Positions 10,480 to 29,907 of a DNA stretch of 32,000 nt are shown in pieces. The DNA is from Nitrosomonas europaea. GTDB taxonomy: Bacteria; Pseudomonadota; Gammaproteobacteria; Burkholderiales; Nitrosomonadaceae. The notes beneath the pieces were generated by a model. The model searched no databases. It was given only the letters and a program-made list of their open reading frames with translations, and was not told where the DNA came from. The stretch lies in the NCBI RefSeq assembly GCF_900167395.1, contig NZ_FUWK01000011.1, positions 1-32,000 on the forward strand. Reading direction: 5' to 3'. How positions within the stretch are numbered: position 1 is the stretch's first letter; every line of letters begins with the position of its first letter. The translations under genes were made by a program, and so were the position numbers.

Positions 10480-10555
10480 TGGCGCCCTGGAGACGAATCG
10501 AACGTCCGACCTACCCCTTAGGAGGGGGTCGCTCTATCCCCTGAGCTACCAGGGC
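10480..10555 (-). tRNA. tRNA-Arg (anticodon CCT), CCA encoded
   Basis: Hand-folded reverse complement: GCCCTGG-TA-GCTC AGGGGAT AGAGC-G-ACCCC CTCCTAA GGGGT-AGGTC-GGACG TTCGATT CGTCT-CCAGGGC-G-CCA. This gives a 7-bp acceptor stem, a TTCGA T-loop and anticodon CCT. Confidence 0.9.
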
Positions 10556-14785: not shown

Positions 14786-16753
14786 CTAATTTCCCAGGCC
14801 CGGTACCTGGATTTCGGCTTCCTGCGCAAGATACACCCAGTCCACGATCTCCTGGCTGGGTGTATAACCGGGAACGAGTTGTTCCATCATCAACCGGATT
14901 ACGCTGACATCATTCACATTGAGCGCCACCTCCAGCGCACTCAGCTTGTCTTCCAGATCTGCCCAGGGAACGAACTCCTCACGTGCTTTCATGATTCGTG
15001 GATGTGAGGTCGGTTCCAGGTCATCACCGATCAGCAACTCTTCATAGAGTTTTTCTCCGGGACGTAAACCAGTAATCACGATTTCGATATCTCCTTCCGG
15101 ATTCTGCTCATCCCTGATTTTCAGTCCGGAGAGCTCAACCATGCGGTGTGCTAAATCAATGATCTTGACCGACTGCCCCATGTCCAGCACAAATACACCT
15201 CCCCCTTTCGCCATGGCTCCCGCCTGAATGACCAGTTGAGCGGCTTCCGGAATAGTCATGAAATAGCGGGTAATTTCAGGGTGAGTCAGCGTAATCGGGC
15301 CACCTTCACGGATCTGCCGGCGGAAGCGCGGTACCACCGAACCTGAAGAACCCAGTACATTGCCAAAACGCACTATGGAGAATCGGGTGGCGGAACCCCT
15401 GTCTGCAAGCGCCTGCAGCACCATTTCAGCCAAACGCTTGCTCGCACCCATGATATTGGTAGGCCGCACCGCCTTATCCGTACTGATCAGCACGAAATCC
15501 GCCACACCGTTCTCCTCAGCCGCCTGTGCGAGGCAAAGCGTACCCAGTGCGTTATTCTTGATGCCTTCCGCCGGATTGTGCTCCACCAGCGGTACATGTT
15601 TATAGGCCGCTGCGTGATAAACGGTATCAGGATGCCAGGTAGACATGATCTCGCACATTCGATCTTCATCCTGCACCGAAGCCAGAAGAGGTACCAGCAC
15701 GATCTCACGGCTGGCAAGCTTTTCCTCCAGCTCCTGGTGAATCAGATAAAGTGCAAACTCATTCTGCTCGATCAGCAACAGCCTGGCGGGTCCGACAGCA
15801 AGAATCTGGCGACACAACTCGCTGCCGATCGATCCGCCCGCTCCTGTCACCAGTACCACCTTGTCCAGGATATTCTTCGCCAGCAGGATATGGTTGGGCA
15901 TTACCGGCTCACGGCCAAGCAAATCATCGATATCCAGCTCACGCAGATCTGCAATACTGACTCTGCCCTGAATTAGATCCGCCATGCTGGGCAGGGTGCG
16001 CACCGAGACACGTGCACTGCGGATCTGGCTCAGGATTTCATTACGACGACGGCGCGAGATACCAGGCATCGCCAGCAGTACATCGCTGATGTTCAGCGTC
16101 AGAACCAGCCCGGTCAGATCACCTGGATTATAGATAGGCAAACCGTTGAGCACATGTCCGTGCAAACGATCGTCATCATCCAGAAATCCCACTACCTGTA
16201 TTTCCGGGCTGTTGGTCATGACCGAGGCCAGCTGACGACCCGTCCGGCCAACACCATAAATAAGGGCTTTGGGCTGGGAGGCGCGCTTCAGGATATTCTG
16301 GTATTGATCTCCCAGCCACACACGAGCCATTGCGCGCGATGCACCTACAAACAGCAGAAGCAGAATCGGCTGGATGATACCGACTGTTCGCGGAACACCC
16401 GGCAGCCCGATCACCGTAAACATGGATGCATAAGCCAGTCCGTAAATACCGATTGCACGTGCCACGGCCAGCAACGCCGGCCAGCCGCTGTACCGGAAGA
16501 TGGCGCGGTAAAGACCGGTTACGATAAAAATGGGCAGCGCCAGTACGACCGAAGCGGCCGCAGCCCGAACAGCACCTGTCGCCCAGTAGCCCTGTCCGGA
16601 AAAACTGATGAATTCACCCAAGCGCAGGTAATAAGCCAGCCATACCGTCAGAATACATAAACTGAGGTCAACTGAAAGCACAACCATACGTTTTGCCGTA
16701 CGGGGCAATGCCAGGACCGGAGATGCAAGCTGTGCAAGGTATTTTTCCAGCAT
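14786..16753 (-). CDS. Membrane-bound nucleotide-sugar 4,6-dehydratase/epimerase, CapD/WbpM/PglF family
   Basis: N-terminal TM segments followed by two Rossmann regions (VLVTGAGGSIGSEL; YHAAAYKHVP with the YxxxK motif). ATG at 16753 is preferred; the ORF track uses the GTG at 16762. Confidence 0.85.
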   Translation of the reverse strand: MLEKYLAQLASPVLALPRTAKRMVVLSVDLSLCILTVWLAYYLRLGEFISFSGQGYWATGAVRAAAASVVLALPIFIVTGLYRAIFRYSGWPALLAVARAIGIYGLAYASMFTVIGLPGVPRTVGIIQPILLLLFVGASRAMARVWLGDQYQNILKRASQPKALIYGVGRTGRQLASVMTNSPEIQVVGFLDDDDRLHGHVLNGLPIYNPGDLTGLVLTLNISDVLLAMPGISRRRRNEILSQIRSARVSVRTLPSMADLIQGRVSIADLRELDIDDLLGREPVMPNHILLAKNILDKVVLVTGAGGSIGSELCRQILAVGPARLLLIEQNEFALYLIHQELEEKLASREIVLVPLLASVQDEDRMCEIMSTWHPDTVYHAAAYKHVPLVEHNPAEGIKNNALGTLCLAQAAEENGVADFVLISTDKAVRPTNIMGASKRLAEMVLQALADRGSATRFSIVRFGNVLGSSGSVVPRFRRQIREGGPITLTHPEITRYFMTIPEAAQLVIQAGAMAKGGGVFVLDMGQSVKIIDLAHRMVELSGLKIRDEQNPEGDIEIVITGLRPGEKLYEELLIGDDLEPTSHPRIMKAREEFVPWADLEDKLSALEVALNVNDVSVIRLMMEQLVPGYTPSQEIVDWVYLAQEAEIQVPGLGN

Positions 16754-16761
16754 GATGTTCA

Positions 16762-17379
16762 CTACCCGGATTTTTTTCTTACGCGATCACCTGTACCACG
16801 CCCCAGTGCCGTCAGCAGGATGTATCTGAAACAGGATGTCAGCGATAATGTTTTGATCATCTGTGCATCGATTTCCGCCAGTAAAACGGGGGTAGACATA
16901 TCGATCCCCTGAATCTGCGCCAACCCCGTAATACCAGGGCGTACATCGAACACACCCCGAAGCTGCCGTTCCCTGATCAACTCATGCTGATTTGGCAGGC
17001 ACGGGCGGGGGCCCACCAGACTCATCTCCCCCTTGAGAACATTCCATAGCTGGGGCAATTCATCCAGCTTGGTTTGGCGCAGAAAACCGCCAAAAGGAGT
17101 CACTGCAGAGGCATCGGCCAGATGAGTGGCCACCGAAGCCGTCCCTGGCCGCATGGTACGGAATTTGACCAGAGTAAATGGTTGCTGCCGCCGGCCCACC
17201 CTGATCTGCCGAAACAGCGGGGAGCCGGTATCAAACAACCCGATTACGTAAAGAACCACCATAAGCGGCAAAGTCACCAGAATGCCCGGAATTACCAGCA
17301 CGATATCCAGTAAACGCAACATTACCTCTCGGTTCACGAAAAGCGGGCTTTCTCTTGTTTTGCCGCTCATCTGCCTCAC
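16762..17379 (-). CDS. Undecaprenyl-phosphate sugar phosphotransferase (bacterial sugar transferase family, PglC/WbaP C-terminal-like)
   Basis: 205 aa, one re-entrant/TM helix. Motifs [42 protein letters not shown] and RPGITGLAQ. Confidence 0.85.
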
Positions 17380-17380
17380 A

Positions 17381-18328
17381 CTACGACTTCGTTTCCGGTT
17401 TATGCTGACGATACCACTGCACAGTCAGCGCCAGACCAGCCTGCATGCCGTAAGGCGGCAGCCAGCCCAGTTCTTTCTGTACGGGCATGCTGTCAACCGA
17501 AAGCGAGCCCGTCAAACGGTCGATTGCAGATCGTTTTCCCAATAAATCCCCCACCCGTCTCATCCAGGCTGCCGGTACAGGCAGCAGAAAACTTCCATGC
17601 CCCAGCACAGATCCAATCCGACGAATCAAGCCCGGGGTGGAAACATCCTCACCATCACTCACCATGAATGTTTTGCTGGCAGCATCAGGATGTGTCAGAC
17701 AAAGCCGGATGATATCCACCAGATTCCCGAGGTAAATCAGACTGCGCCGATTGTGAATCGCTCCCAGAGGCAGCGGTATTCGTCGATCTACCATCTGCAA
17801 TAACCGCAGGAAATTACCCCCTACGCCGGGCCCGTATACCAGTGGCGGACGCAGGATGACCACTTCCATCCCCGTTTCAGCAGATATCTGCCTAAGCGAC
17901 TGCTCTGCCTCCCATTTGGAGATGGCATAAGCATCACTCGGCACAGCAGAATCATCAGCCTGAAAGGGCTTATCGCACTCCTCGCCCAGCACTTTCACAG
18001 TGCTGATGAAAACAAATCGCCTGATACCTCTTGCCGCGCATTCCCGAGCCAGACGAACGGTACCCAGCGTGTTCACCCGGTGATATGAATCGGCTGCTTC
18101 TTTTTCCTTCTCTGCCAGCGGTACTTTGGCCGCCAGGTGAACGACACCATCGATACCTTCATCGAACACTCTGCTCCAGCTCGTTTCCCCATCCACTTCA
18201 CCAACTGAAATCTCCTCATACCTGGTGGATATACGCACTGCTCGAACGGCCCGCAAACCAGCTCTCTCCAGAGCCGGACATAACGTCTGCCCGACAAAGC
18301 CATTTGCACCCGTAACCAGAATGTTCAT
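17381..18328 (-). CDS. NAD-dependent sugar epimerase/dehydratase (extended SDR)
   Basis: Start chosen at MNILVTGANGFVG (GGAG Shine-Dalgarno upstream; avoids overlap with the upstream gene). YAISK matches the YxxxK catalytic motif. Confidence 0.8.
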   Translation of the reverse strand: MNILVTGANGFVGQTLCPALERAGLRAVRAVRISTRYEEISVGEVDGETSWSRVFDEGIDGVVHLAAKVPLAEKEKEAADSYHRVNTLGTVRLARECAARGIRRFVFISTVKVLGEECDKPFQADDSAVPSDAYAISKWEAEQSLRQISAETGMEVVILRPPLVYGPGVGGNFLRLLQMVDRRIPLPLGAIHNRRSLIYLGNLVDIIRLCLTHPDAASKTFMVSDGEDVSTPGLIRRIGSVLGHGSFLLPVPAAWMRRVGDLLGKRSAIDRLTGSLSVDSMPVQKELGWLPPYGMQAGLALTVQWYRQHKPETKS

Positions 18329-18342
18329 TTCAACTACTCCAT

Positions 18343-19092
18343 CTACTGCTCGGGCGTCTGAGGCAAACGCCCCCAATGTTTCCAGAAATAACGGATCAGA
18401 CTCAAAGCGTGCCACTTCATGTAGCGCAGATTCCGGCGGCTCGATCGCCGTGCATCATGAATAACGCTGGCCTTCGGGCACGCCAATACTGACCGCCCCG
18501 ATTTCCACAGGCGTGCACAAATATCGACATCCTCGTAATACAGAAAGAAGCCTTCATCAAAGCCCCCGACTGCACGAAAATCCTCAGTACGAAACAACAT
18601 GAACATACCCGCCACCCAGTCTGCTGCAAATGCCTCATCACCGGCAGCAAAGAGATACCGGCCATCTCCATGCCCGAACAGTTTTGCTGCCAGAGATGTC
18701 AATACAGGAAAACAACGCACGCTGTCCTCAATCATACCGCTTGGCGTAACCACCATCGGTGCGATCACACCTGCAGAATCATATGCTCCCTCCTCGATCA
18801 GGATCGGAAAAGGATTATTAATCAAACGAATATCAGGATTCATCACACAGAACCATTCCCCTTCTGCCTGCCGAAAGGCCGCATTGTGGTTCGCGCCAAA
18901 CCCTCTGGCTGCTGTGTTTCTTAATATCCTGACCGGATAAGGATAATCACCGGGCTTAGATGAAATATCTTCAGGGATATTGAGCGTAACCAGAACTTCG
19001 GTAACCATGGACATATCCAATCTAACCAAATCCGCGAGCAATTGCTCAACCAGGGTCGACTGGCCATGACTGACGATAGAAACAGTGATCAT
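18343..19092 (-). CDS. Glycosyltransferase family 2
   Basis: The N-terminus MITVSIVSHGQ..., NTAARGFGANHN and the DxD-like YYEDVD region are typical of GT2 (rhamnosyltransferase-like) enzymes. Confidence 0.8.
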   Translation of the reverse strand: MITVSIVSHGQSTLVEQLLADLVRLDMSMVTEVLVTLNIPEDISSKPGDYPYPVRILRNTAARGFGANHNAAFRQAEGEWFCVMNPDIRLINNPFPILIEEGAYDSAGVIAPMVVTPSGMIEDSVRCFPVLTSLAAKLFGHGDGRYLFAAGDEAFAADWVAGMFMLFRTEDFRAVGGFDEGFFLYYEDVDICARLWKSGRSVLACPKASVIHDARRSSRRNLRYMKWHALSLIRYFWKHWGRLPQTPEQ

Positions 19093-19127
19093 GTAACAAT
19101 ATTCTCAAAGATACTCAATATTGCAAC

Positions 19128-19538
19128 TTACCTCACTAACCAGTTTTCTACCTGCAATTCCCCAACCCGGGAAAATTTATCCAGATTGGCAGTAATCAGC
19201 ACACATTGACTTGCCATAGCCTGGGCCGTAATCAGCATATCGTTAGGCCCGATGACTTGTCCAGATTGCTCAAGCACCCAGCGCAATTGCGCATAAGCGC
19301 GGTCCACTGGCGTATCAAGCGGCAACACCTCGATTGCCGCCAGAATGGCTTCCACCTGCCTGGTCAGCCTTAAGGAATTTCTCCTGGCAGCCCCAAACCT
19401 CAATTCTGCGGCAACGATAATCGACGTACATACCGCTGCTTCACCAACTTCCTCAATTCGTCGGGCTATAACTCCTTGTGGATAGCGAACCAGATCAGAA
19501 AGAATATTCGTATCCAGTAAATAACGCGGTGAAATCAT
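19128..19538 (-). CDS. vapC: VapC PIN-domain toxin
   Basis: 136 aa. YLLDTNILSD gives the first PIN acidic residue. 4-bp overlap with the upstream antitoxin gene. Confidence 0.85.
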   Translation of the reverse strand: MISPRYLLDTNILSDLVRYPQGVIARRIEEVGEAAVCTSIIVAAELRFGAARRNSLRLTRQVEAILAAIEVLPLDTPVDRAYAQLRWVLEQSGQVIGPNDMLITAQAMASQCVLITANLDKFSRVGELQVENWLVR

Positions 19539-19774
19539 AAATCAATGTCATCCAACGGTGCCAATCTGGTATCAATATCAGAAAAATTTTCCTCAAGTGG
19601 TGCCAACTCTGCCAACACTACCAGCAAGCCTTTTGGGGGTACCGGTTCAATAATCAAACGATTACCTTCCCGGCGCATGATTACCTCCTGCGCATTCAGC
19701 TCGAATTCGCGAGGAATACGCACAGCCTGATTCTTGCCGTTACGAAACAATCTGACATAACGTTCAGATAACAT
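19535..19774 (-). CDS. vapB: VapB antitoxin (AbrB/SpoVT-type)
   Basis: Start at MLSERYVRLFRNGKNQAVRIPREFEL (AGGAG Shine-Dalgarno 8 nt upstream). The SpoVT/AbrB-like NxQAVRIP motif is present. Confidence 0.8.
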   Translation of the reverse strand: MLSERYVRLFRNGKNQAVRIPREFELNAQEVIMRREGNRLIIEPVPPKGLLVVLAELAPLEENFSDIDTRLAPLDDIDL

Positions 19775-19940
19775 GGTATTACTCCTATTCCTAAACATAG
19801 GTCAAGCATATGTTTCTTCTAACAGATCGTCAATGTATCGACTCGCTTAGCCTGCAAATTTCACGATAATCCTTGATTCTGGTTTTTCGTGATTTTTGAC
19901 TCACTATGCTGGATTTAACTCTGACGGGTAGCGGAACGTA

Positions 19941-20360
19941 GCGATCCAGTAATAACGTTAGCAGATATGCAGAATCACCATTTCTGTCATCGTTATAACA
20001 GCACTGCTAAAGGCGCTTGAATAGCGCAGCCAGCCACAGAATGACATTTCCCGCAAGCGTTTGTCGATAAAGCCCGGTATGGTACAAATCCGCAAGCCAG
20101 TTCCATAATGAAGCATTTCGGAAGCGGGAAAATTCGTCATAGATGAACCTATTTTCCGCTGTCAGTTTCTCCGCAAGCCTGACAACGCCTCGATATTGCG
20201 TGCATTCCACTGCCGATATCTCCCGGACAGCATCAGACCAAAACGACTGAATTTGGCAATAAATCCACCATCTGCCCCGATCAGGTTGGTAGCATGCTGG
20301 CGATAGCGCAAACCGGGAGCAATAAAGCGCCGGGATTTTGCGGGAAATACCACCTATCAA
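19941..20360 (-). pseudogene. Copy 1 (longest) of a repeated gene 3' end remnant ('gene X'), frameshifted; includes about 65 bp of conserved 3' UTR
   Basis: Ends ...FIYDEFSRFRNASLWNWLADLYHTGLYRQTLAGNVILWLAALFKRL* (stop at 20007-20009). The upstream part reads better in another frame (...LIGADGGFIAKFSRFGLMLSGR), implying a frameshift near 20200. Family not recognised. Confidence 0.7.
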
Positions 20361-20465
20361 ATCATCAATGGCAAAGTGGAAAAATTATTGCAATTGCCCC
20401 TTTTGACTACCTCTGTCTTTGCAGGCAAAGCAATCCAGTCATTCCATTTCCACCCGATTTGATGA

Positions 20466-20672
20466 CAAAATGCACACATATGTAACGGAGGACTGCTGGA
20501 TGACATCATCCATCCAAATACTACGGATTACCCAAATCAACGAATATTTGTGATCCAGATTCATGATTATGTCTATCTGGTGCCTTACGTGGAAAACCAG
20601 GATGAGATTTTTCTTAAGACGATTATCCCCAGCAGAAAATTCACCAGGATATACCTCGGAGGTGAAATATGA
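20466..20672 (+). pseudogene. 5'-truncated toxin gene remnant (BrnT/DUF497-like by context)
   Basis: The frame opens after a TGA and has no in-frame start. Peptide ...DDIIHPNTTDYPNQRIFVIQIHDYVYLVPYVENQDEIFLKTIIPSRKFTRIYLGGEI*. ATGA overlap with the following RHH antitoxin gene. Confidence 0.45.
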
Positions 20673-20969
20673 ACAAAGGAAAACTATCACAGGAAGAGAA
20701 AACGCTGCTTGATGCTGTGGAGTCCGGCGAGTACGAATCGTACGCTAACCAAATCACGCAAGAAAGAACTTGAGGCTGCGGCCAACCTTACCTTCAAGAA
20801 GGATAAAAGAATAAATATTCGCATATCGAACAGGGATCTTGTCGCTATTCAGTCCAGAGCAATTGAAGAAGGCATCCCATATCAAACGCTTGTCTCCAGT
20901 ATTATTCATAAATACATATCTGGCTCACTGCAAGATCTCACAGCGCGCAAATCGGGCAAACCCGGCTGA
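20669..20969 (+). pseudogene. Frameshifted CopG/RHH (BrnA-like) antitoxin gene
   Basis: The N-terminal frame MNKGKLSQEEKTLLDAVESGEYES... stops at about 20770. The C-terminal part is in another frame: ...KKELEAAANLTFKKDKRINIRISNRDLVAIQSRAIEEGIPYQTLVSSIIHKYISG. A frameshift near 20745 is implied. Confidence 0.6.
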
Positions 20970-21149
20970 GGTACAAACCGCATCTCCTGTGGAACTGGAT
21001 TGCCTCAATTTTCACGGTCTTCGTGAATCGCAACGTGACATGGCGATCCAGTCCCTGTACCGCCTGTCTCTCTGGATTGCTGCACTTCGTACTCCAAAGA
21101 CACAGCAGATCCAACCTCCGCAGTCTTTGCGAACCCTGCAAGGGTGAAG

Positions 21150-21340
21150 TAATCCAGAGACAACACTAGCAGATATGCAAAGCTGCCGATTTTTGTCATC
21201 GTTATAATAGCACTGTTAAAGGCGCTTGAATAACGCCGCCAGCCGGTTCCACAGTAAAGCATTGCGGAAGTGGGAAAATTCGTCATAGATGAGCCAACTC
21301 TCCGGGGTTAGTTTTTCACGCAAATCTGACAATACTACCT
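21150..21340 (-). repeat. Copy 2 of the gene-X 3' end remnant (with an internal 21-codon deletion)
   Basis: Reads ...VVLSDLREKLTPESWLIYDEFSHFRNALLWNRLAALFKRL* (stop at 21215-21217). The 3' UTR matches copy 1 (tagcagatatgca...gtcatcgttataa.agcactg.taaagg). Confidence 0.75.
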
Positions 21341-21365
21341 TTTCGGTTGAAAGATCATTTTTGAT

Positions 21366-21394
21366 TTGACATGAAATCTATTGCTATCTAATAT
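21366..21394 (+). promoter_or_regulatory. Sigma70-type promoter TTGACA-17 nt-TAATAT, ending 6 nt before the ATG
   Basis: TTGACA at 21366-21371 and TAATAT at 21389-21394; ATG at 21401. No Shine-Dalgarno in between. Confidence 0.6.
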
Positions 21395-21400
21395 CGACTC

Positions 21401-21721
21401 ATGAAAACCAGCTTTAAGCGCCCATTCGCCCAGTATGTCAAGAAAGCTACCAAACCGCTGCGGCTAGCGATCGAAGATGAGGTGGAAATGATATGTGAAA
21501 CACCAGAAATTGGCGAGCTCAAGGCCGGGGATCTGGCTGATGTTCGGGTTTACAAGTTCCGGTTCAATCAGCAAGAGTATCTAATAGCTTACCGATCGCC
21601 TACCAGAAACACACCTGTTGAATTTATGATCATCGACTTCTATCAAATCGGTACGCACGAAAACTTTTACGACAAACTGAAACAGTACTTGCGACACGAT
21701 AAAAATCCGAGAGAAATATGA
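21401..21721 (+). CDS. RelE/ParE-superfamily toxin
   Basis: 106 aa. ...GELKAGDLADVRVYKFRFNQQEYLIAYRS...IIDFYQIGTHENFY fits the RelE/ParE fold pattern. ATGA overlap with the next gene. Confidence 0.7.
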   Translation: MKTSFKRPFAQYVKKATKPLRLAIEDEVEMICETPEIGELKAGDLADVRVYKFRFNQQEYLIAYRSPTRNTPVEFMIIDFYQIGTHENFYDKLKQYLRHDKNPREI

Positions 21722-22035
21722 TGAGCCATACCTTAACTGCCGAAGAGTTATACGCTGAAATAAAGAGAATGCCGATAGCTGAACGGATTCGATTCTTTTC
21801 CCTGCTGGCGGACAGCGCCTTCCGTGAGGATGATTTCACCCATGAGCAGATATTTGGTGAAACATATCAGGAACCGTTCTCGGCCCCGGAAGCAGCAGAA
21901 TATCTGGAGATATCGTTGCCCACGCTGCGCCGCTATGTGCAGTCAGGCAAATTGGTGCCCAGCTGTATCGTAGGCCGCAACCAGATGTTCTCTGCCCAAA
22001 CCTTGCGTACCTTCAAGAGAAACCGTGGCAACTGA
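21718..22035 (+). CDS. Putative antitoxin with a C-terminal excisionase/MerR-type HTH
   Basis: 105 aa. The HTH segment is APEAAEYLEISLPTLRRYVQSGKL. It lies immediately downstream of the toxin and is translationally coupled to it. Confidence 0.6.
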   Translation: MMSHTLTAEELYAEIKRMPIAERIRFFSLLADSAFREDDFTHEQIFGETYQEPFSAPEAAEYLEISLPTLRRYVQSGKLVPSCIVGRNQMFSAQTLRTFKRNRGN

Positions 22036-22038
22036 GAG

Positions 22039-23106
22039 ATGAATCACGATCACGGTTATAAACTGCTGTTTTCCCACGCTGAAATGGTGGCAGACCTGTT
22101 GCGTGGCTTTGTGAAAGAAGGCTGGGTTAATGAACTTGATTTCTCTACACTGGAAAAGATTAACGGCAGCTATATTAGCGATGATTTGAGAGAGCGCCAG
22201 GACGACATCATCTGGCGTTTGCGCCGCAAGCAAGGCAAGCAAGACGAATGGCTGTACGTTTACCTGCTGCTGGAATTCCAATCTACTGTGGACTGGTTCA
22301 TGGCGGTGCGGATCATGACTTACATCGGCCTGCTGTATCAGGATCTCATCCGTAGTGAATCCATTAAAACGGGGGAACAGCTGCCACCGGTACTGCCGAT
22401 GGTTTTGTACAACGGAGATCATCGCTGGCAAGCGCCAGTGAATATGGGTGAGCTGATCTTGCCTGCACCTGGTGGGTTGGATCGTTATCGACCACAACTC
22501 AACTACCTGCTGCTGGACGAAGGCCGCTACCATGAACACGAACTGGTAGCATTACGTAATCTGACAGCCGCGTTATTCCGACTGGAGAACAGTCGCACCC
22601 CGGAAGATGTCCAACAAGTATTGCAGGCATTAATCACTTGGTTGCATACCCCGGAACAAGACAGCCTGCGACGTGCATTTACTGTCTGGCTAAAACGGGT
22701 ATTCTTACCAGGCAGAATGCCCAAAACCAGCTTCGATGAAATTCATGATTTACAGGAGGTATACAGCATGCTTTCAGAACGTGTCAAAGATTGGACCAAA
22801 GACTGGAAACAACAGGGAATTGAGGAAGGCAAACAAATCGGTATCCAGGAAGGTAAGCGGATAGGTATCCAGGAAGGCAAACAGATAGGTATCCGTGAAG
22901 GACGGCAGGAAGGACGGCAGGAAGGACGGCAGGAAGGACGATTGGAGGGTGAGGTAGAATTTTTTTTGAGGCTGCTGGAACGAAAATTTGGTCCGGCAGA
23001 TGAAATTACCCAGACTCGTATTAAATCTGCAGATTCGCAGACTTTGTTGCGCTGGGGTGAGCGGATTCTGGTAGCACAAACTATCGAAGAAGTATTCGAA
23101 GAGTAA
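22039..23106 (+). CDS. Rpn-family recombination-promoting nuclease / putative transposase (YhgA-like PD-(D/E)XK)
   Basis: N-terminus MNHDHGYKLLFSHAEMVADLLRGF, then ...DDIIWRL...YVYLLLEFQST (D...ExQ/K nuclease core). The C-terminal EG-rich repeats are typical of Rpn/YhgA proteins. Confidence 0.8.
   Translation: MNHDHGYKLLFSHAEMVADLLRGFVKEGWVNELDFSTLEKINGSYISDDLRERQDDIIWRLRRKQGKQDEWLYVYLLLEFQSTVDWFMAVRIMTYIGLLYQDLIRSESIKTGEQLPPVLPMVLYNGDHRWQAPVNMGELILPAPGGLDRYRPQLNYLLLDEGRYHEHELVALRNLTAALFRLENSRTPEDVQQVLQALITWLHTPEQDSLRRAFTVWLKRVFLPGRMPKTSFDEIHDLQEVYSMLSERVKDWTKDWKQQGIEEGKQIGIQEGKRIGIQEGKQIGIREGRQEGRQEGRQEGRLEGEVEFFLRLLERKFGPADEITQTRIKSADSQTLLRWGERILVAQTIEEVFEE
22768..23106 (+). CDS. Candidate intragenic in-frame small protein (RpnS-like, 112 aa) inside the Rpn gene
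   Basis: Perfect AGGAGG (22754-22759) 8 nt upstream of the in-frame ATG at 22768. The product is MLSERVKDWTKDWKQQGIEEGK... to the Rpn stop codon. Confidence 0.4.
   Translation: MLSERVKDWTKDWKQQGIEEGKQIGIQEGKRIGIQEGKQIGIREGRQEGRQEGRQEGRLEGEVEFFLRLLERKFGPADEITQTRIKSADSQTLLRWGERILVAQTIEEVFEE
22816..22944 (+). repeat. In-frame tandem repeats: 24-bp units (x3-4) followed by 12-bp unit gaaggacggcag (x3 perfect plus 1 imperfect)
   Basis: Read directly. They encode GIEEGKQI GIQEGKRI GIQEGKQI GIREGRQ EGRQ EGRQ EGRL. Confidence 0.9.
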
Positions 23107-23154
23107 TGATTTCTGCATTTACGCACCCTTTCATCCCGCCATTGTGGTTGCAGG

Positions 23155-23278
23155 AGTGCAAAGTTGCCGGTTTCAGTCATCGTTACAACACACTGCTAAA
23201 AACATTTGAATAACGCCGCCAGCCACAGGGTGACATTTCCTGCAAAAGGCTGTCGATAAAGCCCTGTACGATACAAGC
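23155..23278 (-). repeat. Copy 3 of the gene-X 3' end remnant
   Basis: Reads ...GSLYRTGLYRQPFAGNVTLWLAALFKCF* (stop at 23196-23198). The 3' UTR segment gcaaagttgccggtttcagtcatcgttacaacacactgctaaaa matches copy 2. Confidence 0.75.
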
Positions 23279-23400
23279 TCCCCACTCTTTTCCTCTTTTC
23301 CTCTTTTACACAAAACACGCTTATTCCAGGCAAGCATAAAAGCGTAGGGTGACGGGATAAATCAGTGTTTCTCCAAGTTGGCGTTAATCTGTAATGTCGT

Positions 23401-23429
23401 TTGACGCTAATATCGCAACGCAATACTAT
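23401..23429 (+). promoter_or_regulatory. Sigma70-type promoter TTGACG-17 nt-TACTAT, ending 6 nt before the higB ATG
   Basis: TTGACG at 23401-23406 and TACTAT at 23424-23429; ATG at 23436. No Shine-Dalgarno in between. Confidence 0.55.
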
Positions 23430-23435
23430 ATACTC

Positions 23436-23717
23436 ATGACGATCAAGACATTTCGATGCGCGGATCCTGAAACCTTATTCAAGTTAGGGCGAGTTGCACG
23501 ATTTGTCAACATTGAGCGTCCAGCGTTACGCAAGCTCAAGCAACTTGATTTAGCACGGTGCATTGAGGATATACGTGTGCCGCCCGCGAATCGGCCGGAG
23601 ATATTGAAAGGCGACCGTGCCGGGCAGCACAGTATCCGCATCAACGACCAGTGGCGTGTGTGCTTCCGCTGGACGGGCACGGATGCAGAAGATGTTGAGA
23701 TTGTGGATTACCACTGA
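23436..23717 (+). CDS. higB: HigB-type toxin (plasmid maintenance system killer, RelE superfamily)
   Basis: MTIKTFRCADPETLFKLGRV...PPANRPEILKGDRAGQHSIRINDQWRVCFRW...VEIVDYH matches the HigB/killer family pattern. Confidence 0.85.
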   Translation: MTIKTFRCADPETLFKLGRVARFVNIERPALRKLKQLDLARCIEDIRVPPANRPEILKGDRAGQHSIRINDQWRVCFRWTGTDAEDVEIVDYH

Positions 23718-23729
23718 TGGAGATTAACC

Positions 23730-24047
23730 ATGAATAATAAATTAACGCCGGTTTCCCCCGGCGAGATGCTGGCAGAGGAATTCTTAATTCCGCTGGGTAT
23801 GAGCAATTACCGTCTGGCAAAGGAAATTGGCGTATCAGCGCAGCGCATCGGTGAAATCGTAACGGGGAAGCGCGCCATTACCGTAGATACAGATTTGCGC
23901 CTATGCCGATTTTTTGGTCTGTCAGACGGATGGTGGTTGCGCCTACAAGTGGACTACGATATCGAGATGGCGCGCGGTGCGCTGGAAGAAACATTGGCGA
24001 AGATCAGACCGTGGGCAAATACCCAAGAGCATGGGACACCGGCCTGA
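23730..24047 (+). CDS. higA: HigA antitoxin (XRE-type HTH)
   Basis: PGEMLAEEFLIPLGMSNYRLAKEIGVSAQRIGEIVTGKRAITVDTDLRLCRFFG is the classic HigA/VapI signature. Confidence 0.9.
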   Translation: MNNKLTPVSPGEMLAEEFLIPLGMSNYRLAKEIGVSAQRIGEIVTGKRAITVDTDLRLCRFFGLSDGWWLRLQVDYDIEMARGALEETLAKIRPWANTQEHGTPA

Positions 24048-24119
24048 TCATTGTTCCCAGTGGATGGTTTCAACCACCATCAAAGTAAGAATACCGGGTC
24101 CCAAGAGCATCTATGTTGG

Positions 24120-24364
24120 CGTGATTCGATACATTACCGATACATTACCAGACCCGCCATGCAGCACAACAAGATGTGCTGCAGTATATTTCCATATTTT
24201 ATAACAGTCATCGACCACATTCATACTTGGGATACAAAAGCCAGAATCAATATGAGGCAGAAATGGAAAAATTAAAAAATGTCACTCAACTGGAGTATCC
24301 GGTTTTACTTGACCAGATCATAGCAAAGTGTCCGGGAGTATTAGGCCAGAACAAGGAGCAATGA
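24120..24364 (+). pseudogene. IS3-family transposase (OrfB) C-terminal remnant
   Basis: ...YQTRHAAQQDVLQYISIFYNSHRPHSYLGYKSQNQYE matches the conserved IS3 OrfB tail (YIExFYNxxRxHSxLGYxSP). The catalytic core is absent. An 11-bp tandem duplication gatacattacc sits at 24128-24149. Confidence 0.75.
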
Positions 24365-24365
24365 T

Positions 24366-26048
24366 ATGAACATCAACGCATCAATCATTGATCAGCGTTT
24401 GGCTGGTGTTCAAGATAAAATCAAGGAACGGGCGACCGAAGAGTTTGGCATCAGCGATGGCGATCGCCTCAGGTCGCTAGCCTTTGTTTACTTGTGCGTC
24501 GAAACCATGCTTGATCTCGATGTTGATGAAGCCTTCGATTGTCTGACCGACGGAGGCGGCGACTTTGGTGTGGATGCACTGCACATTACCGAAGAAATGG
24601 ATGGCGAGTTTGGCGTTACCCTGTTTCAAGGAAAGTACAAAAAAAATCTTGAGGGAAATTCAAATTTCGAACAAAACAGCATCGAAGCGATGGTCAATGC
24701 CATTCGCCATATCTTCGATCCGTCTGCCGATCTTGGCGCTATCAATGATCGACTGCGCGTCAAAGTGGAACAGGCTCGCTCTTTGATTCGAGATGGCCTG
24801 ATTCCGCGTGTTCGTGCCATCGCTTGTAATAATGGCCTCAAGTGGAACACGGATGGCCAACAGTCGATTGACCGTGCTGTTCTTGGTGATCAAGTTACCT
24901 GGGAACATGTTAATCACGACGTATTGATCGGTATCTTGCAGAGCATCAAACCGGTCGATGAAACCTTGCGGTTGACGGGCAAAGCCATGGTTGAAGACAT
25001 GAATTACAGCCGTGTATGCGTAGGGCGGATGCCCGTGGCTGAAGTGGCTGCGCTCATGAAAAATCATGGCGAAAAGCTGCTGGAGCGCAATATTAGACGC
25101 TATCTTGGGTTGCACGGAAATCGTGTAAATGAGGGTATCCGCGCTACATTGAGTTCAAATACGCCAGAGAATTTCTATTTTTTCAACAATGGGATAACCC
25201 TTGTTTGCGACAAATTCACCTACAATGCACTTCAACAAGGTGATTTTCAAATCAAAGTCAAGAACCTGCAGATCGTCAATGGTGGCCAGAGCTGTATGAC
25301 CATCCTCAAAACAGCCGAGGAACTTGAAAAAAATGGCCAGACCTTACCAGCGCAGGCAAGCGTCTTGATCCGGCTGTACGAACTGAGCAGCGATAACGAC
25401 GATGTGGTTCTGCAAATAACTCACGCCACCAACAGTCAAAACCCGGTGGACTTGAAGGATCTGCGCGCCAACGATGCCAGGCAGCAGCAGCTCGAACAAA
25501 GCATTCAAAACCTGGGCTATAGCTACCGACGCAAGCGCATGGATGCAACCACCAAGGCCACCGACATTACCACAGGTGCCGCAGCGGAGGCTGTACTGGC
25601 CATTTGGCGTAAAGCGCCACATCAGGCGAAATTTTTGACCCGCGAGCACTTCGGCAAGCTGTACGACACCATCTTTAGCGAGTCGCTCAATGGCGCTCAG
25701 GTGGTGATTGCAGCCTTGCTTTATCGCATCGCTGAAAATCACCGACGCCGGCCGCATGGTGATGATCCATTGTTCGTCCGCTATGCATCTTGCTTTATCG
25801 CCATGCAGATGGGAAAGCGGCTGCTCAAAGCACTGGATATCAAGCTCAATGGCCTGGACCACCGCAATTTTGCCCAGGCCAGACAATGGATTGAGGAACA
25901 GGGCGAAGCCGTGTTTGTAGTGTCCCGACAAGATATCGATACCGCACTCAAGGCTCTGTATGGGAACCAGGAAATTTCCGTGCAGCAACTCTCTGCCACC
26001 TTCCGCCGTGGTGATCTGATCGGGAAACTTGATCAGGTCGAGGTGTGA
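24366..26048 (+). CDS. AIPR-family (abortive infection phage resistance) protein
   Basis: 560 aa, with an AAGGAG Shine-Dalgarno. N-terminal ...CLTDGGGDFGVDALHI and central ...NFYFFNNGITLVCDKF...LQIVNGGQS match my recollection of Pfam AIPR (PF10592) motifs. Confidence 0.75.
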   Translation: MNINASIIDQRLAGVQDKIKERATEEFGISDGDRLRSLAFVYLCVETMLDLDVDEAFDCLTDGGGDFGVDALHITEEMDGEFGVTLFQGKYKKNLEGNSNFEQNSIEAMVNAIRHIFDPSADLGAINDRLRVKVEQARSLIRDGLIPRVRAIACNNGLKWNTDGQQSIDRAVLGDQVTWEHVNHDVLIGILQSIKPVDETLRLTGKAMVEDMNYSRVCVGRMPVAEVAALMKNHGEKLLERNIRRYLGLHGNRVNEGIRATLSSNTPENFYFFNNGITLVCDKFTYNALQQGDFQIKVKNLQIVNGGQSCMTILKTAEELEKNGQTLPAQASVLIRLYELSSDNDDVVLQITHATNSQNPVDLKDLRANDARQQQLEQSIQNLGYSYRRKRMDATTKATDITTGAAAEAVLAIWRKAPHQAKFLTREHFGKLYDTIFSESLNGAQVVIAALLYRIAENHRRRPHGDDPLFVRYASCFIAMQMGKRLLKALDIKLNGLDHRNFAQARQWIEEQGEAVFVVSRQDIDTALKALYGNQEISVQQLSATFRRGDLIGKLDQVEV

Positions 26049-26211
26049 TCGATGGCCTTCAACCAAACCAGGTCAGTTACGCCGGATTGCTTTGTCAGCT
26101 ACGCTTCCTCGCAAGGAAAGAAGAGGAATTGAGCGCATTACCATGCAAAGACAAAGCGAGCAGGAGCAGCTTTTCTCAATTTTCATCGTCTTCACGAGGC
26201 CGTTAGGCCGT

Positions 26212-26372
26212 GGCGATCCAGAAAATTTGAATAAGGTAGCTTATTTGAACATCGCTGTAACAGACTGCTAAAGGCGTTTGAATAACGCCGCCAGCCACAG
26301 AGTGATATTTCCTGCAAAAGCCTGTCGATAGAGTCTTGTGCGGTACAAACCTATAAGCCAGTTCCAGATTGA
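26212..26372 (-). repeat. Copy 4 of the gene-X 3' end remnant
   Basis: Reads SIWNWLIGLYRTRLYRQAFAGNITLWLAALFKRL* (stop at 26268-26270). It begins 3 codons after the TAG stop of the 26376-27482 gene. Confidence 0.75.
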
Positions 26373-26375
26373 ACA

Positions 26376-27482
26376 CTAAATGATACCAGCGTTATCAAAA
26401 CGGCTTTTCCATGAGTTGAATTCTCTGAATTTACAAATAACTTCTGAACTTGCATGGTACTGAAGCGCCAAGGCTGCCAATTCACCAACATCCTCCACGC
26501 CACGGCTTAAATAGGTTCCATCAGTACTTTTACGTAACGCCATTTCCCCAAAATCTGTAGATAATACTGGCAACCCCAAGGCGCGATACTCATAGTATTT
26601 GATCGGGTCTACCGATTCAGTCAGCAAAATTTTCTTAAAAGGTATTAATCCAACATCGAATTCCTGCATTGCCAGCAATGCCGCCTGGTGATTGCAGGGA
26701 GGTAGAATTTCAATATTTTGTGGCAATACTGCAGGAACCGTTGAAAATACCGGACCAATCAAGCGCACTATATCCTGTGGTCGCACATTGGCTAAAACAA
26801 TCACCCATTCCCAGTCAAACCAAGCGGCAATCGTACCTACGTAACCCAGTACTTTCCGCTCATTATCGTGGCTGCATAACCTCAGAGGCGGCAAAATATC
26901 CAGATCCAATCCATTATGTACAAGTTCCACATCATTCCGGAAGATTGACCAACGGTGCTTCAATGTGGTTGAAGAAGTCAGGATCACGCTCACCTGACGA
27001 ACAAGTGCTTTTTCTCGTTGTTGCATGGCAAAACGCGATAACCCGGAGTAAAACGAGGGAAAATCATCCATCACATCATAGATCGACCGACATCCATTGA
27101 GTCGATCCATGACAGTCAACGCAAAAATAGAGGGTTTGCCTATGACCAGCAATGTTTCACCACTGGCTGCGAAAACTGACAGTTCTTGCAGCAACCGCCG
27201 CCATAAAAAAATATTGACTGTTCCTGAGCTCGGTAACGGCTCTATCGGCAAGGCAACAGGTTTGATTATGTTTAACCAGGCAGGAATGAAAACCTCATCT
27301 CGTGCTGCTTTGGCTTTACCTATAAATTGTTGAAAGTCAGAGAGCAGCGGGAAACGAGTTGGATACGGATCAACCCAAAATACAGACCCCCCCGTCCGGC
27401 CATGAAACCACTCTACAAATTTATGCGGTCGTTGCGCAAAACTTGCCCAAGGTACAGGCGACAAGTAAATCAGTTGCATCAA
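26376..27482 (-). CDS. Glycosyltransferase, GT4/TuaH-like
   Basis: The N-terminus IYLSPVPWASFAQRPHKFVEWF is the TuaH-like W...QRP motif. C-terminal GLIPFKKILLTESVDPIKYYEYRALGLPVLST matches the GT-B EX7E-type region. Confidence 0.75.
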   Translation of the reverse strand: MMQLIYLSPVPWASFAQRPHKFVEWFHGRTGGSVFWVDPYPTRFPLLSDFQQFIGKAKAARDEVFIPAWLNIIKPVALPIEPLPSSGTVNIFLWRRLLQELSVFAASGETLLVIGKPSIFALTVMDRLNGCRSIYDVMDDFPSFYSGLSRFAMQQREKALVRQVSVILTSSTTLKHRWSIFRNDVELVHNGLDLDILPPLRLCSHDNERKVLGYVGTIAAWFDWEWVIVLANVRPQDIVRLIGPVFSTVPAVLPQNIEILPPCNHQAALLAMQEFDVGLIPFKKILLTESVDPIKYYEYRALGLPVLSTDFGEMALRKSTDGTYLSRGVEDVGELAALALQYHASSEVICKFREFNSWKSRFDNAGII

Positions 27483-28573
27483 GTAAAGTACTTACGCAAG
27501 ACTTGGACTATACGCTCTGCCGCCTTGCCATCACCATAAGGTGAAATCCCTCGCGCCATCGCACGATAAGCGAATTCATCATCAAGCAGGCACTGAGTCT
27601 CCTGCACGATTGCATCATAATTGGGGCCGACCAGCTTCACGACACCCTGCTCCACTGCCTCAGGCCGCTCGGTCTCATCGCGCAGCACCAGCACCGGTTT
27701 GCCCAGCGCAGGAGCTTCTTCCTGAATACCACCTGAATCAGTAAGGATGATGTAGGCGCGCTTCATTGCTGCGATGAACGATGCATAATCCAGTGGTTCA
27801 CACAGCGTGAAATTATGCAGCCCTGCCAGGAACTCGTGCGCGACATCCTTGACATTGGGGTTTGGGTGCACCGGATAGAGAAACTGCACATCCGGATTTT
27901 TCTCGGCTAGCGTCTGCAACGCACGGCAAATATTGCGGAACGGCTCGCCGAAATTTTCGCGACGGTGGGAGGTCACGAGCACAAGACGCTTGTTTGAATC
28001 AAGCTCAATTCCCAACTGCAGATCCTTCGATGCGCTCATCAGCAACGCATCAATGACAGTATTGCCCGTCACGATAATCTTAGAATCGGCCACTCCCTCC
28101 TTGAGCAAATTCTGCCGCGAGCCCTCGGTAGGCGCGAAATGCCAACGAGCAAACTTACCAGTGATCACACGATTGGCTTCCTCGGGGAATGGATTTTGCA
28201 TATCCCAAGTACGCAGCCCGGCCTCAACGTGACCAACGGGAATATGATGATAAAAACACGCCAAAGCAACAGTCATGACCGTAGTAGTATCACCTTGAAC
28301 CAATACAGCATCCGGCTTCTCAGCTTGCAAGACATCGTCGAGTTCAGGCAGCAACCGCGCAGTCAATGTTGTCAGCGCTTGATTGGGGCGCATGATGTTC
28401 AGATCGATATCAGGATCGATACCAAAAAACTCGTTTACCTGATCCAACATATTTCTGTGTTGGGCAGTTGCCAAAACCCGGACGTTTGCCCATGGTTCTT
28501 TTTTTAGCGCCAGAATAACTGGGGCCATTTTGATGGCTTCGGGACGGGTACCTACTACAATCAAAATTTTCAT
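27479..28573 (-). CDS. wecB: UDP-N-acetylglucosamine 2-epimerase (non-hydrolysing)
   Basis: MKILIVVGTRPEAIKMAPV..., DSGGIQEEAPALGKPVLVLR and a 364-aa length are all typical of WecB/MnaA. Confidence 0.9.
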   Translation of the reverse strand: MKILIVVGTRPEAIKMAPVILALKKEPWANVRVLATAQHRNMLDQVNEFFGIDPDIDLNIMRPNQALTTLTARLLPELDDVLQAEKPDAVLVQGDTTTVMTVALACFYHHIPVGHVEAGLRTWDMQNPFPEEANRVITGKFARWHFAPTEGSRQNLLKEGVADSKIIVTGNTVIDALLMSASKDLQLGIELDSNKRLVLVTSHRRENFGEPFRNICRALQTLAEKNPDVQFLYPVHPNPNVKDVAHEFLAGLHNFTLCEPLDYASFIAAMKRAYIILTDSGGIQEEAPALGKPVLVLRDETERPEAVEQGVVKLVGPNYDAIVQETQCLLDDEFAYRAMARGISPYGDGKAAERIVQVLRKYFT

Positions 28574-29907
28574 GACCTTACGCCCTCAATAGCCTGGCGT
28601 GTGGCATTTAAATAAGCATATCCATATTTCTTGTCTGGCTCGAGGTAAGCGCCTTCACCCCATTCATTCCAAGCATTGATAAAAATGTAATGGTCTTCAA
28701 GATCTTCTCGGTTCTTGGCCTCAAGCAGAATGTCTGTAAGCCAGCGCTCATATAAGTCGGGCGAAGCTCCCTCAAATATCATGCCTTTATTGTCACGTCT
28801 TGCAGAGTTATCCCACATTGGCATAGCTGCGCGATGAAGCTTTGGATGATTGTATAAAAAATATTTTTTATGCTCGACGATATCGCGGTAGTCCAGCACG
28901 ATACCGCCAAAGTCCTGCATATAGTTAATCTGTGAACTGATATCGACGCAATGTTTGAAGAGTGTTCCCGGATGAAACTCACTCTGCGCATCAAATCCCA
29001 ATTCAATCAAGTTGACATCCCACGTATGTTCTTTTATGCCGATAATATAAATGTCGCCAATGCCTGCTTTAACACAATGCTCACGCCATGCTGTTATTGT
29101 GCTAGCGCATTCTGGAATGAACGATGGGCGGTAAATTGTAAAGATCGGTTTACCATTCATCCTTATATATCTTGAATCACGCATATAAGGTACAACACTA
29201 TTAATAAATGCAATATAACTCTCCACCGTTTCGCTCTGCTTAACCAGGATTTCTCCGCAAGAACCATCAAACCTGCGAGTCCATGACTCATTCGCCCAGC
29301 AAAGTGAGAAGGGGAAATCAATAGTCTTGGCTTCCAAGAACATGTCGAGCGGCTTATCCAGTAAGCGCTTGCCATCGAACCAGTAATAATAAAAACAGAA
29401 TCCATAGATGCCATACATTTGCGCCAACTCAACTTGGCGGCGCATATTATCCAGGATTCGTAAATCATAATATCCAAGCTCACCGGGCAAACGTGGCTGG
29501 TAATGTCCAACATATTGCGGCATAGCGCGAGAAACGTTATTCCATTCAGTCACTCCCTTACCCCACCACATGTCATTTTCTTTAGTTGGATGAAACTGTG
29601 GAAGGTAATAAGCCAGGATTTTTGCATCACCTTCCTTCCGCTGGTACGAACTTGAGCTGATCTCGACATACTCGTTACCCGATTTCCTAGGTATTGCAAG
29701 GATTTGATTAGCATACTCCTGGAGGATTTTCTCCCGACTGACAGATGCTGAACTAGCTGTTGTCACCGGCTCAGCCAATGCTTTTTTCATGCCACGCAAA
29801 AATCTGCGAGCGAATCCAACCAGTAACTCCTTGGTTTCTTCAGGTAACGGAAGCCGCCAATATATTCGACGTAGTAGTTGATATAAATTTTGATTCACTC
29901 TTTTCAC
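28570..29907 (-). CDS. WbsX-like / glycoside hydrolase family 99-like polysaccharide biosynthesis protein
   Basis: ILAYYLPQFHPTKENDMWWGKGVTEWNNV and INAWNEWGEGAYLEP match the WbsX-family signature as I remember it. Confidence 0.7.
   Translation of the reverse strand: MKRVNQNLYQLLRRIYWRLPLPEETKELLVGFARRFLRGMKKALAEPVTTASSASVSREKILQEYANQILAIPRKSGNEYVEISSSSYQRKEGDAKILAYYLPQFHPTKENDMWWGKGVTEWNNVSRAMPQYVGHYQPRLPGELGYYDLRILDNMRRQVELAQMYGIYGFCFYYYWFDGKRLLDKPLDMFLEAKTIDFPFSLCWANESWTRRFDGSCGEILVKQSETVESYIAFINSVVPYMRDSRYIRMNGKPIFTIYRPSFIPECASTITAWREHCVKAGIGDIYIIGIKEHTWDVNLIELGFDAQSEFHPGTLFKHCVDISSQINYMQDFGGIVLDYRDIVEHKKYFLYNHPKLHRAAMPMWDNSARRDNKGMIFEGASPDLYERWLTDILLEAKNREDLEDHYIFINAWNEWGEGAYLEPDKKYGYAYLNATRQAIEGVRS

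Follow-up and report, generated by a model that had tools for sequence, protein, structure and literature searches.

How can defence genes build up repeatedly at one site of a bacterial chromosome when neither an integrase nor an intact transposase lies nearby to bring them in? This question is raised by a locus of Nitrosomonas europaea contained in the 32,000-nucleotide stretch that we analysed (contig NZ_FUWK01000011.1, positions 1 to 32,000; hereafter the window), in which a minus-strand polysaccharide operon is interrupted between positions 19941 and 26372. Four copies of the 3' end of one gene, here called X, alternate there with three plus-strand cassettes that each open with a toxin-antitoxin pair. 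A sequence-only reading of the block had proposed repeated accretion of defence cassettes at a recombination hotspot, the 3' end of X, by a mechanism that it left unnamed. The hotspot is supported by our comparison with related loci, in which the cassettes vary between strains and X remnants lie at the breakpoints, and a mechanism can now be put forward: single cassettes appear to be gained or lost by single homologous crossovers within X remnants, and the first junctions between cargo and X remnants were probably made by illegitimate or homology-facilitated illegitimate recombination. We consider it likely that the locus is a cassette array that operates without an integrase, its X remnants being both the scars of imported alleles and homology arms. 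The array site is the junction of X with the next glycosyltransferase family 2 (GT2) gene in a Nitrosomonas surface-polysaccharide operon.

The window matches the chromosome of N. europaea ATCC 19718 (AL954747.1) with 0 mismatches across the two pieces compared (L044, window 17394-29717, and L051, window 15401-27721). The AL954747.1 coordinate equals 556015 minus the window coordinate, which places the array at about 529643-536074 on the reverse strand. The genome sequence of N. europaea has been public since 2003. The sequence is thus already known; literature searches found no published description of the array locus, and the phenomenon appears to be undescribed. In agreement with the sequence-only reading, a Pfam scan of open reading frames (ORFs) from across the window found no integrase and no intact transposase; the other ORFs scanned are housekeeping or polysaccharide genes.

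Four homologous minus-strand segments had been described in the block, and direct repeats, blastn and tblastn agree on all of them. The direct repeats fall into 110-nucleotide (nt), 56-nt and 82-nt families with 63-91% identity: D1 (20003-20112, 23192-23301 and 26264-26373; 71-80% identity), D2 (19980-20035, 21189-21244 and 26241-26296) and D4 (20090-20171 and 21236-21317; 82% identity). Each segment matches the 3' part of an intact X of Nitrosomonas eutropha Nm57 (L013:9332-10297), both in tblastn and in blastn (E 3e-19 to 2e-84; window 19997-20321, 21236-21331, 23186-23293 and 26256-26373), and the remnant stop codons lie at 20007-20009, 21216-21218, 23196-23198 and 26268-26270. Copy 1 (19941-20400, minus strand) is an X pseudogene covering about nt 300-966 of X, with its flank at 19941-20006; it aligns to intact X at 19997-20321 with 81% identity and additionally at 20313-20338, matches residues 218-321 in tblastn, and carries one frameshift and nested internal deletions. 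Its position had been given correctly, whereas its end, placed at 20360, reaches about 20400. In copy 2 (21152-21340, minus strand), X residues 262-298 are joined to the final 6 codons, followed by the stop codon and the flank. The 63 nt (21 codons, in frame) that are missing in between were lost between GGCTGGCGG direct repeats; the 21-codon deletion was thus recognised correctly before, but the actual repeat is longer than the AGCC named for it. Copy 3 (23150-23293) and copy 4 (26212-26373), likewise on the minus strand, consist of the final ~27 and ~34 codons of X with the flank. The segment after the stop codon, first described as a conserved 3' untranslated region, is a shared flank and runs into small hairpin elements. 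Pfam found no match for the remnant peptides, which are too short and lie outside the GT2 domain model, and blastn of copy 1 against Escherichia coli genomes gave no match.

The sequence-only reading had treated X as an unknown gene. It is now identified as a family-2 glycosyltransferase gene that is intact in Nm57, where it encodes 321 residues and directly follows cysQ. A word-based protein search with the remnant returned only ORFs of 46-100 residues, all from Nitrosomonas or wastewater metagenomes; the intact orthologue was found by a scan of species-representative genomes, which yielded seven X loci, each belonging to Nitrosomonas or to the metagenome-assembled genome of a related betaproteobacterium. 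Nitrosomonas sp. HPC101 has an 81%-identical X ORF after cysQ. The full 321 residues are present in Nm57 and L022, and the match starts at residue 3 in HPC101 and at residue 17 in L023 and L025. X contains the Pfam Glycos_transf_2 domain and most resembles TuaG, at a score well below the cut-off of that equivalog. A profile search with the remnant gave 344 matches at E<=0.001, many of them the C-terminus of proteins of ~300-330 residues. Because a 321-residue GT2 gene exists and the profile matches fall at protein C-termini, X is an ordinary polysaccharide family-2 glycosyltransferase and not the end of an insertion sequence (IS). The proposal that the remnants are 3' ends of one protein-coding gene holds, since intact X has the same 3' end.

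The way in which the copies differ from each other is that of coding sequences. We aligned 17 copies from 11 loci by codon and, over the final 32 codons, counted 449, 148 and 704 pairwise differences at codon positions 1, 2 and 3, respectively. The ratio of nonsynonymous to synonymous substitution rates (dN/dS) ranged from 0.06 to 0.64 and was mostly 0.1-0.3. It was similarly low between copies of one genome: 0.23, 0.20 and 0.36 for copies 1/3, 1/4 and 3/4 of the window, 0.13-0.20 for copies a and b of Nm57, and 0.34 for copies a and b of L014. None of 12 copies compared has a stop codon within the final 32 codons. The earlier count of 17 differences in 35 codons between copies 1 and 4, 7 of them synonymous, was reproduced exactly, as was the absence of premature stops from the shared part of every copy. 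Copies of the same genome are often closer to those of other genomes; copy 4, for example, differs from a copy in L018 at 6 sites and from copy 1 at 20. The preponderance of third-position differences and the low dN/dS even within one genome indicate alleles that diverged while functional, as the sequence-only reading had suggested in preference to a non-coding repeat. On this evidence the copies diverged inside working X genes of different lineages and were brought together later.

If the block had grown by accretion, its composition should differ between relatives, and this is what we observed in the ~35 loci mapped, several of which are metagenome contigs. Written in X orientation, with X' for a remnant, the maps read cysQ-X-(VapC 3' remnant)-GT2 in L021, cysQ-X-ParE pair in HPC101, cysQ-X-AIPR in L023 and L025, and cysQ-X-HigBA-X'-IS/HEPN-MNT-Rpn/ParE-X'-GT2 in Nm57; L022 has the Nm57 arrangement plus a YhcG nuclease cassette. 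Further arrangements are BrnTA-X'-VapBC-X'-GT2 in L014, X'-AAA_14/DUF4143-X'-rmlA in L007 and TuaH-like-X'-AAA_21 ATPase in L035, and the complete genome L050 holds at least 5 cassettes. BrnTA lies upstream of Rpn in Nm24 and downstream of it in the window. Number, content and order of the cassettes thus vary between loci with X remnants at the breakpoints throughout, in line with what had been expected from a comparison of related strains. At least 10 types of cargo occur at the X/GT2 junction, all of them toxin-antitoxin pairs or defence candidates, the latter including AbiU-like, PDC-S01, PDC-S02 and HEC-01A genes called by PADLOC. Between genomes, cargo is 94-96% identical and the adjoining X' only 70-85%, a sharp drop that places the breakpoints in X'. 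In L021 (L021:3061-3224) the gap between X and GT2 is 163 nt long, and the final ~15 nt of vapC are still retained in it ahead of the GT2 start, so the site was once occupied and later cleared. None of the observations that the sequence-only reading had named as contrary to it was made: the remnants are not IS ends, the arrangement is not fixed and the four segments align.

Similar architectures may exist beyond these relatives. The profile search also returned many C-terminal X fragments of 75-150 residues, 8 of the 10 looked up being on contigs shorter than 3 kb and therefore little informative. A distant freshwater metagenome contig (L037:2230-3959) contains an intact X with 42% identity to that of Nm57, followed by a Wzm'::X' chimera, an ORF in which an ABC-2 (Wzm-like) N-terminus is fused to the 3' half of an X that is 40% identical to the intact X of the same contig. 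Judging from this layout, L037 represents an independent parallel to the Nitrosomonas arrays.

How cassettes are gained or lost can be read from two pairs of closely related loci. L022 is ~99% identical to Nm57 and has one cassette more, that of the YhcG nuclease (L022:7355-8386). This cassette is flanked by two direct repeats of ~570 nt, each composed of the first 17 codons of higB, the promoter region and X'. The two repeats differ at 67 sites. Of the first 30 of these, the single copy of Nm57 has the repeat 1 letter at 29, and at each of the remaining 37 it has the letter of repeat 2. This is the pattern left by a single reciprocal exchange between homologous sequences within X', near X nt 745-770. 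An X' end of the europaea type, its flank and an E1 element (one of the hairpins described below) are found at the left end of the YhcG cassette, and in L028 YhcG follows a copy similar to copy 1, with the same partners as in L022; together these features indicate that the cassette has moved between species and between array positions. The second pair involves the window itself. The environmental contig L043 is 99% identical to it but has no counterpart of window 20186-21235, a stretch that comprises cassette 1, the 5' part of copy 1 and the 3' part of copy 2. Its single hybrid copy follows copy 1 up to GGGAAAATTCGTCATAGATGA, a 21-bp block that is identical in copies 1 and 2, and copy 2 thereafter. 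This corresponds to a single homologous crossover between copies 1 and 2 at about X nt 830, and the hybrid implies that the window's own copies recombine in nature.

These observations suggest the following model for the integrase-free array. An incoming segment, composed of an X allele and the cargo downstream of it, would pair by homology on one side and join illegitimately on the other, and this join would displace the resident X 3' end downstream. X fragments from different alleles would then arrive together with foreign DNA. Each cassette, a toxin-antitoxin pair that a defence gene often accompanies, is bordered by 5'-truncated 3' parts of X. As these remnants are long direct repeats, they can act as homology arms: a single homologous crossover between two of them would release a circle made up of one cassette plus a hybrid remnant, the same process in reverse would insert the circle at any X copy, and unequal crossovers between arrays would stack or reshuffle cassettes. 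Redundant X copies would afterwards decay by microhomology deletions. The direction of the events (gain or loss), the circular intermediates and the role of RecA are all parts of the model that we infer.

Such decay would explain why the remnants have different lengths, and the unequal 5' limits of the copies do seem to come largely from later deletions. Copy 3 and the 477-nt copy b of Nm57 have the same junction on the HigB side, GAGGAAAAGAGTGG, and relative to Nm57 copy b about 300 nt are missing from copy 3 between two GCAGGTTTGT repeats. Copy 3 therefore looks like a deletion derivative of a longer copy of the Nm57 b type. Nested deletions are present in copy 1, in copy a of L014 and in L019, and L014 and Nm24 contain other deletion variants of the copy 1 unit.

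Several points weigh against the model. The copies in the window are only 63-91% identical, so that RecA-type exchange would have a low efficiency and would need short identical blocks. The two crossover events may be gains or losses, and if both are losses, the integration of circles would stay a prediction. The first cargo/X' junctions are not explained by homologous recombination; they lie at different positions of X (nt ~300, ~570 and ~785), and this scatter points to illegitimate joins. On metagenome contigs, repeats can cause misassembly; the isolate genomes ATCC 19718, Nm57, Nm24 and HPC101 have the same architecture as these contigs. In L001 (L001:3797-4633) and also in L032, an extra VapBC lies between the GT2 gene and an epimerase gene. 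On either side of it stands a directly repeated stretch of 45 nt from the GT2 3' end, with 73% identity between the two. This repeat is too short and too diverged for RecA-type Campbell integration, and the same architecture nevertheless occurs there at another gene junction. Finally, the hairpin elements at the cassette boundaries and the concentration of their motif in the block may leave room for a site-specific step acting in trans. The window has the unoccupied form of the L001/L032 VapBC site at 18360-18398.

A bolder form of the model would make the X remnants, perhaps together with these hairpins, an integron-like platform without an integrase, in which circles re-insert at any X copy, within and between species, by means of host RecA or of Rpn, the recombination-promoting nuclease encoded by the cargo, and in which the remnants are kept for the portability of defence genes and are not mere decaying scars. 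We regard this as unlikely.

The hairpins, which we call E elements, are 65-92 nt long, have the terminal inverted repeats CTGGATYGC...GCRATCCAG and are built from modules of ~35 nt, short palindromes that are paired in inverted orientation and form hairpins, as do repetitive extragenic palindromic (REP) sequences and their paired form, REPINs. E1 (21069-21160, minus strand) is a 92-nt hairpin with 17-nt terminal inverted repeats (TCTCTGGATTxC...) and a fold z-score of -3.5. E2 (20991-21055, minus strand) has 65 nt, 14-nt terminal inverted repeats and a z-score of -3.8. A partial E1-type module, E1' (20405-20438, minus strand), lies between the BrnT remnant and copy 1, and further motif sites occur at 19941-19949 and 26213-26221 of the window and in L014, L018, L019 and L023. 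E elements could be REPIN-like passengers, passengers resembling miniature inverted-repeat transposable elements (MITEs), terminators between convergent genes, or the sites of an unknown recombinase.

If the last of these applied, E hairpins would be the sites of a recombinase encoded elsewhere, similar to that of integrons or to the transposases of the REPIN/RAYT (REP-associated tyrosine transposase) type, and the X remnants would be passengers. In favour of such a cassette system, the window contains 7 matches to the CTGGATYGC motif where 0.8 would be expected, and 6 of these lie within the array block; in the other loci compared most E motifs adjoin arrays; and a 45-nt core of E1 lies at the boundary between X' flank and cargo in every array examined, whatever the cargo. 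E1 and E2 fold as hairpins with the z-scores given above, and compensatory stem changes between module types are visible by eye (TTGC/GCAA versus TCGC/GCGA, ACCC/GGGT versus GGCC/GGCC). Moreover, the title of Leon and Roy 2003 (cited in PMC3001079) reports an integron integrase encoded by N. europaea. However, both resolved crossovers fall inside X coding sequence and not in E, and copy 3 forms a cassette boundary without an E module. A regular-expression search for attC core pairs (RYYYAAC and GTTRRRY, 40-140 nt apart) found none on either strand of 19800-26500. There is no recombinase gene in the window and no dif-like site, as judged by matches to CGCATAATGTATATTATGTTAAAT at <=3 mismatches, a consensus that may not be Nitrosomonas's own dif. 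The only Y1 transposase seen, in L052, belongs to an IS200-type insertion with unrelated hairpins. We therefore find this explanation quite improbable. The L052 transposase (L052:8070-8700) lies inside higB and its GC-rich hairpin ends, CCACCGGCAAAGCCGGTGG, are unrelated to E, for which reason it was rejected as a RAYT of the E elements. A 31-nt imperfect palindrome after the copy 1 stop codon was also rejected as a site, as it is not conserved in copies 2-4.

Could the array instead have arisen in place, by tandem duplication of the 3' region of X, neutral decay and unrelated insertions into the redundant copies? Bacteria often acquire tandem duplications, insertions are tolerated in redundant copies, and many later deletions were seen. 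Yet copies within a genome have diverged with a strong bias to synonymous changes (dN/dS 0.13-0.36) and without stops, which is not the pattern of neutral decay, the nearest relative of a copy often resides in another genome (copy 4 and L018), and identity between genomes differs sharply for cargo and adjoining X'. Duplication in situ thus seems a poor account of the locus. We hold it to be still harder to believe that the cassettes are tandem integrative elements, with a tyrosine or serine integrase acting at an attachment site in the X 3' end, replacement 3' ends, and integrase genes that have since been lost. Such elements are classically recognised by direct repeats of a gene 3' end on either side of an island, and all cargo has the same orientation. 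The gene lists of the ~35 related arrays, however, contain no integrase, the repeats (100-570 nt) have variable 5' limits and no short common core, the crossover points differ (X nt ~745-770 in L022/Nm57 and ~830 in L043), and the cassettes measure merely 0.5-3 kb. That the remnants are IS or transposon ends, or a non-coding repeat with a chance open frame, as the many 46-100-residue ORFs and the lack of a long one in the word-based search might have suggested, is refuted by the intact 321-residue GT2 gene with the same 3' end and by the C-terminal profile matches, and accords neither with copy ends that lack terminal inverted repeats nor with an Rfam scan that found nothing in the block. A diversity-generating retroelement was rejected as well, since the window encodes no reverse transcriptase and the differences are skewed by codon position, not towards adenines.

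The cargo of the window was called with Pfam and, for defence genes, also with PADLOC. Cassette 1 (20550-20969, plus strand) consists of a BrnT remnant (20550-20672) and a BrnA/CopG antitoxin gene (20709-20969). Compared with L001, L014 and L019, brnT lacks ~105 nt at window 20483/20484, and the antitoxin gene is intact; the pair had been called decayed and BrnT/BrnA-like, and it is this loss that makes BrnT appear decayed. Cassette 2 (21401-23106, plus strand) encodes a ParE-like toxin (21401-21721), an HTH_17 antitoxin (21718-22035) and an Rpn/YhgA-like nuclease (22039-23106; Pfam Transposase_31). Its previous description as RelE-HTH-Rpn was right for the latter two proteins, whereas the toxin scored as ParE-like in Pfam. 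The three genes form a conserved, syntenic unit in at least 7 loci. Nm57 (L013:15069-16551) has no HTH_17 gene, and its ParE-like gene adjoins Rpn. Within the Rpn gene, three 24-nt tandem units at 22816-22911 code for G(I/R)QEGKQI, and the protein is 331-363 residues long in relatives. Cassette 3 (23394-26048, plus strand) comprises HigB (23394-23717), HigA (23730-24047), an IS3-type scar (24051-24364) and an AIPR/AbiU-like gene (24366-26048). HigB, HigA and AIPR were recovered by Pfam as had been anticipated, and PADLOC scored the AIPR protein as AbiU (3e-47); the scar shows as a weak rve_3 tail that, at E 0.0099, does not reach the Pfam cut-off. HigBA stands alone in Nm57, L020 and L022. Among the contigs read, the exact HigB and ParE proteins of the window were seen only at the array locus. 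The interval from copy 1 to the next glycosyltransferase gene encodes a VapB (MazE-type) and VapC (PIN) pair on the minus strand (19128-19798), and in L014 VapBC is flanked by two X remnants.

The operon genes on either side, both on the minus strand, were assigned by domain search. The second GT2 gene (18343-19092), placed also by locus comparison and located as described before, comes after X in Nm57, and in L021 with only the short VapC remnant in between. The gene at 26376-27482, annotated as GT4 by the sequence-only reading, does encode a transferase, but one that is TuaH-like. Its point of fusion to X is X nt ~861 in three loci (the window, L018 and L035) and X nt ~535 in L027. Copy 4 directly adjoins the TuaH-like stop codon in the same reading frame (26373-26378), and one nonsense-to-sense change there would add 36 residues, 34 of them from X. 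Outside the array, the only Rfam hit in the whole window is a tRNA gene at 10483-10555 (minus strand, 61.9 bits), with no island or integrase adjoining it.

Which known systems does the locus resemble? It is not an integron, an integrase island, a pdif array or an IS, as the defining features of each were looked for and not found. Its nearest known analogues are sequential displacement arrays, of the Rhs and effector-immunity kind, and core defence hotspots, whose definition it fits. In its way of working it is comparable both to a displacement array and to an IS26-type array of translocatable units, and in appearance to an integron array. For type VI secretion system (T6SS) effector-immunity arrays of Vibrio cholerae, a homologous anchor combined with an illegitimate join has been proposed (Kirchberger et al. 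2017, PMC5361080), and the model proposed for these arrays and for Rhs loci offers the most economical origin for the array studied here, by analogy (PMC5361080). In displacement arrays (T6SS, Rhs C-terminal and contact-dependent inhibition (CDI) orphan modules), too, a full-length anchor gene is followed by 5'-truncated, direct-oriented 3' remnants of diverged alleles, each with its downstream cargo and without a dedicated recombinase, that are later moved and edited by homologous recombination. The differences are that the anchor is here a GT2 glycosyltransferase with a conserved 3' end and not a polymorphic toxin with a variable one, that the cargo consists of toxin-antitoxin and defence genes on the opposite strand instead of cognate immunity genes, that the remnants have no obvious reason for retention except as recombination substrates, and that the head copy itself is truncated in many genomes, including the window.

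With integron arrays and clusters of attC sites lacking integrases (CALINs), the locus shares short, co-oriented cassettes between repeats of ~100-200 nt, variable in order and content and rich in toxin-antitoxin and defence genes, and excision would give circles in both. Here, however, attC cores and a neighbouring IntI are missing, the end of a protein-coding gene serves as the repeat, and crossovers occur at variable positions by homology. In arrays of IS26 translocatable units, cargo likewise lies between direct repeats of one element, and circles of repeat and cargo excise and reinsert; the repeat at our locus encodes no transposase, which leaves only host homologous recombination. Minimal mobile elements of Neisseria also exchange cassettes by homologous recombination in flanking genes, without mobility genes. 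Unlike the array, they hold one cassette between two different genes, whereas the repeated fragment here allows arrays to form. N. europaea ATCC 19718 itself is a cultured model organism with an unusually large complement of toxin-antitoxin systems.

The core defence hotspots cDHS1 and cDHS2 of Pseudomonas aeruginosa are fixed sites with variable defence systems, many of them without mobility genes (Johnson et al. 2023, PMC10250203), and their transfer by homologous recombination in the conserved flanks has been proposed (PMC10250203). The Nitrosomonas locus is likewise a chromosomal site with conserved flanks and strain-variable defence content, but the sequence of a flanking gene is repeated inside the island, which makes for a readable record of events and for the exchange of single cassettes. 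How defence islands at hotspots without integrases or transposases are assembled is an openly stated question (PMC10250203). The array locus keeps a record of its own assembly, in that every imported segment would have left the 3' end of the donor's glycosyltransferase allele, and two natural strain pairs have caught the gain or loss of one cassette by one homologous crossover between remnants. It thereby offers a concrete and testable mechanism for cassette-level turnover without mobile-element genes. In Nitrosomonas, the locus ties variation of surface-polysaccharide genes to the turnover of defence genes, both of which bear on phage resistance.

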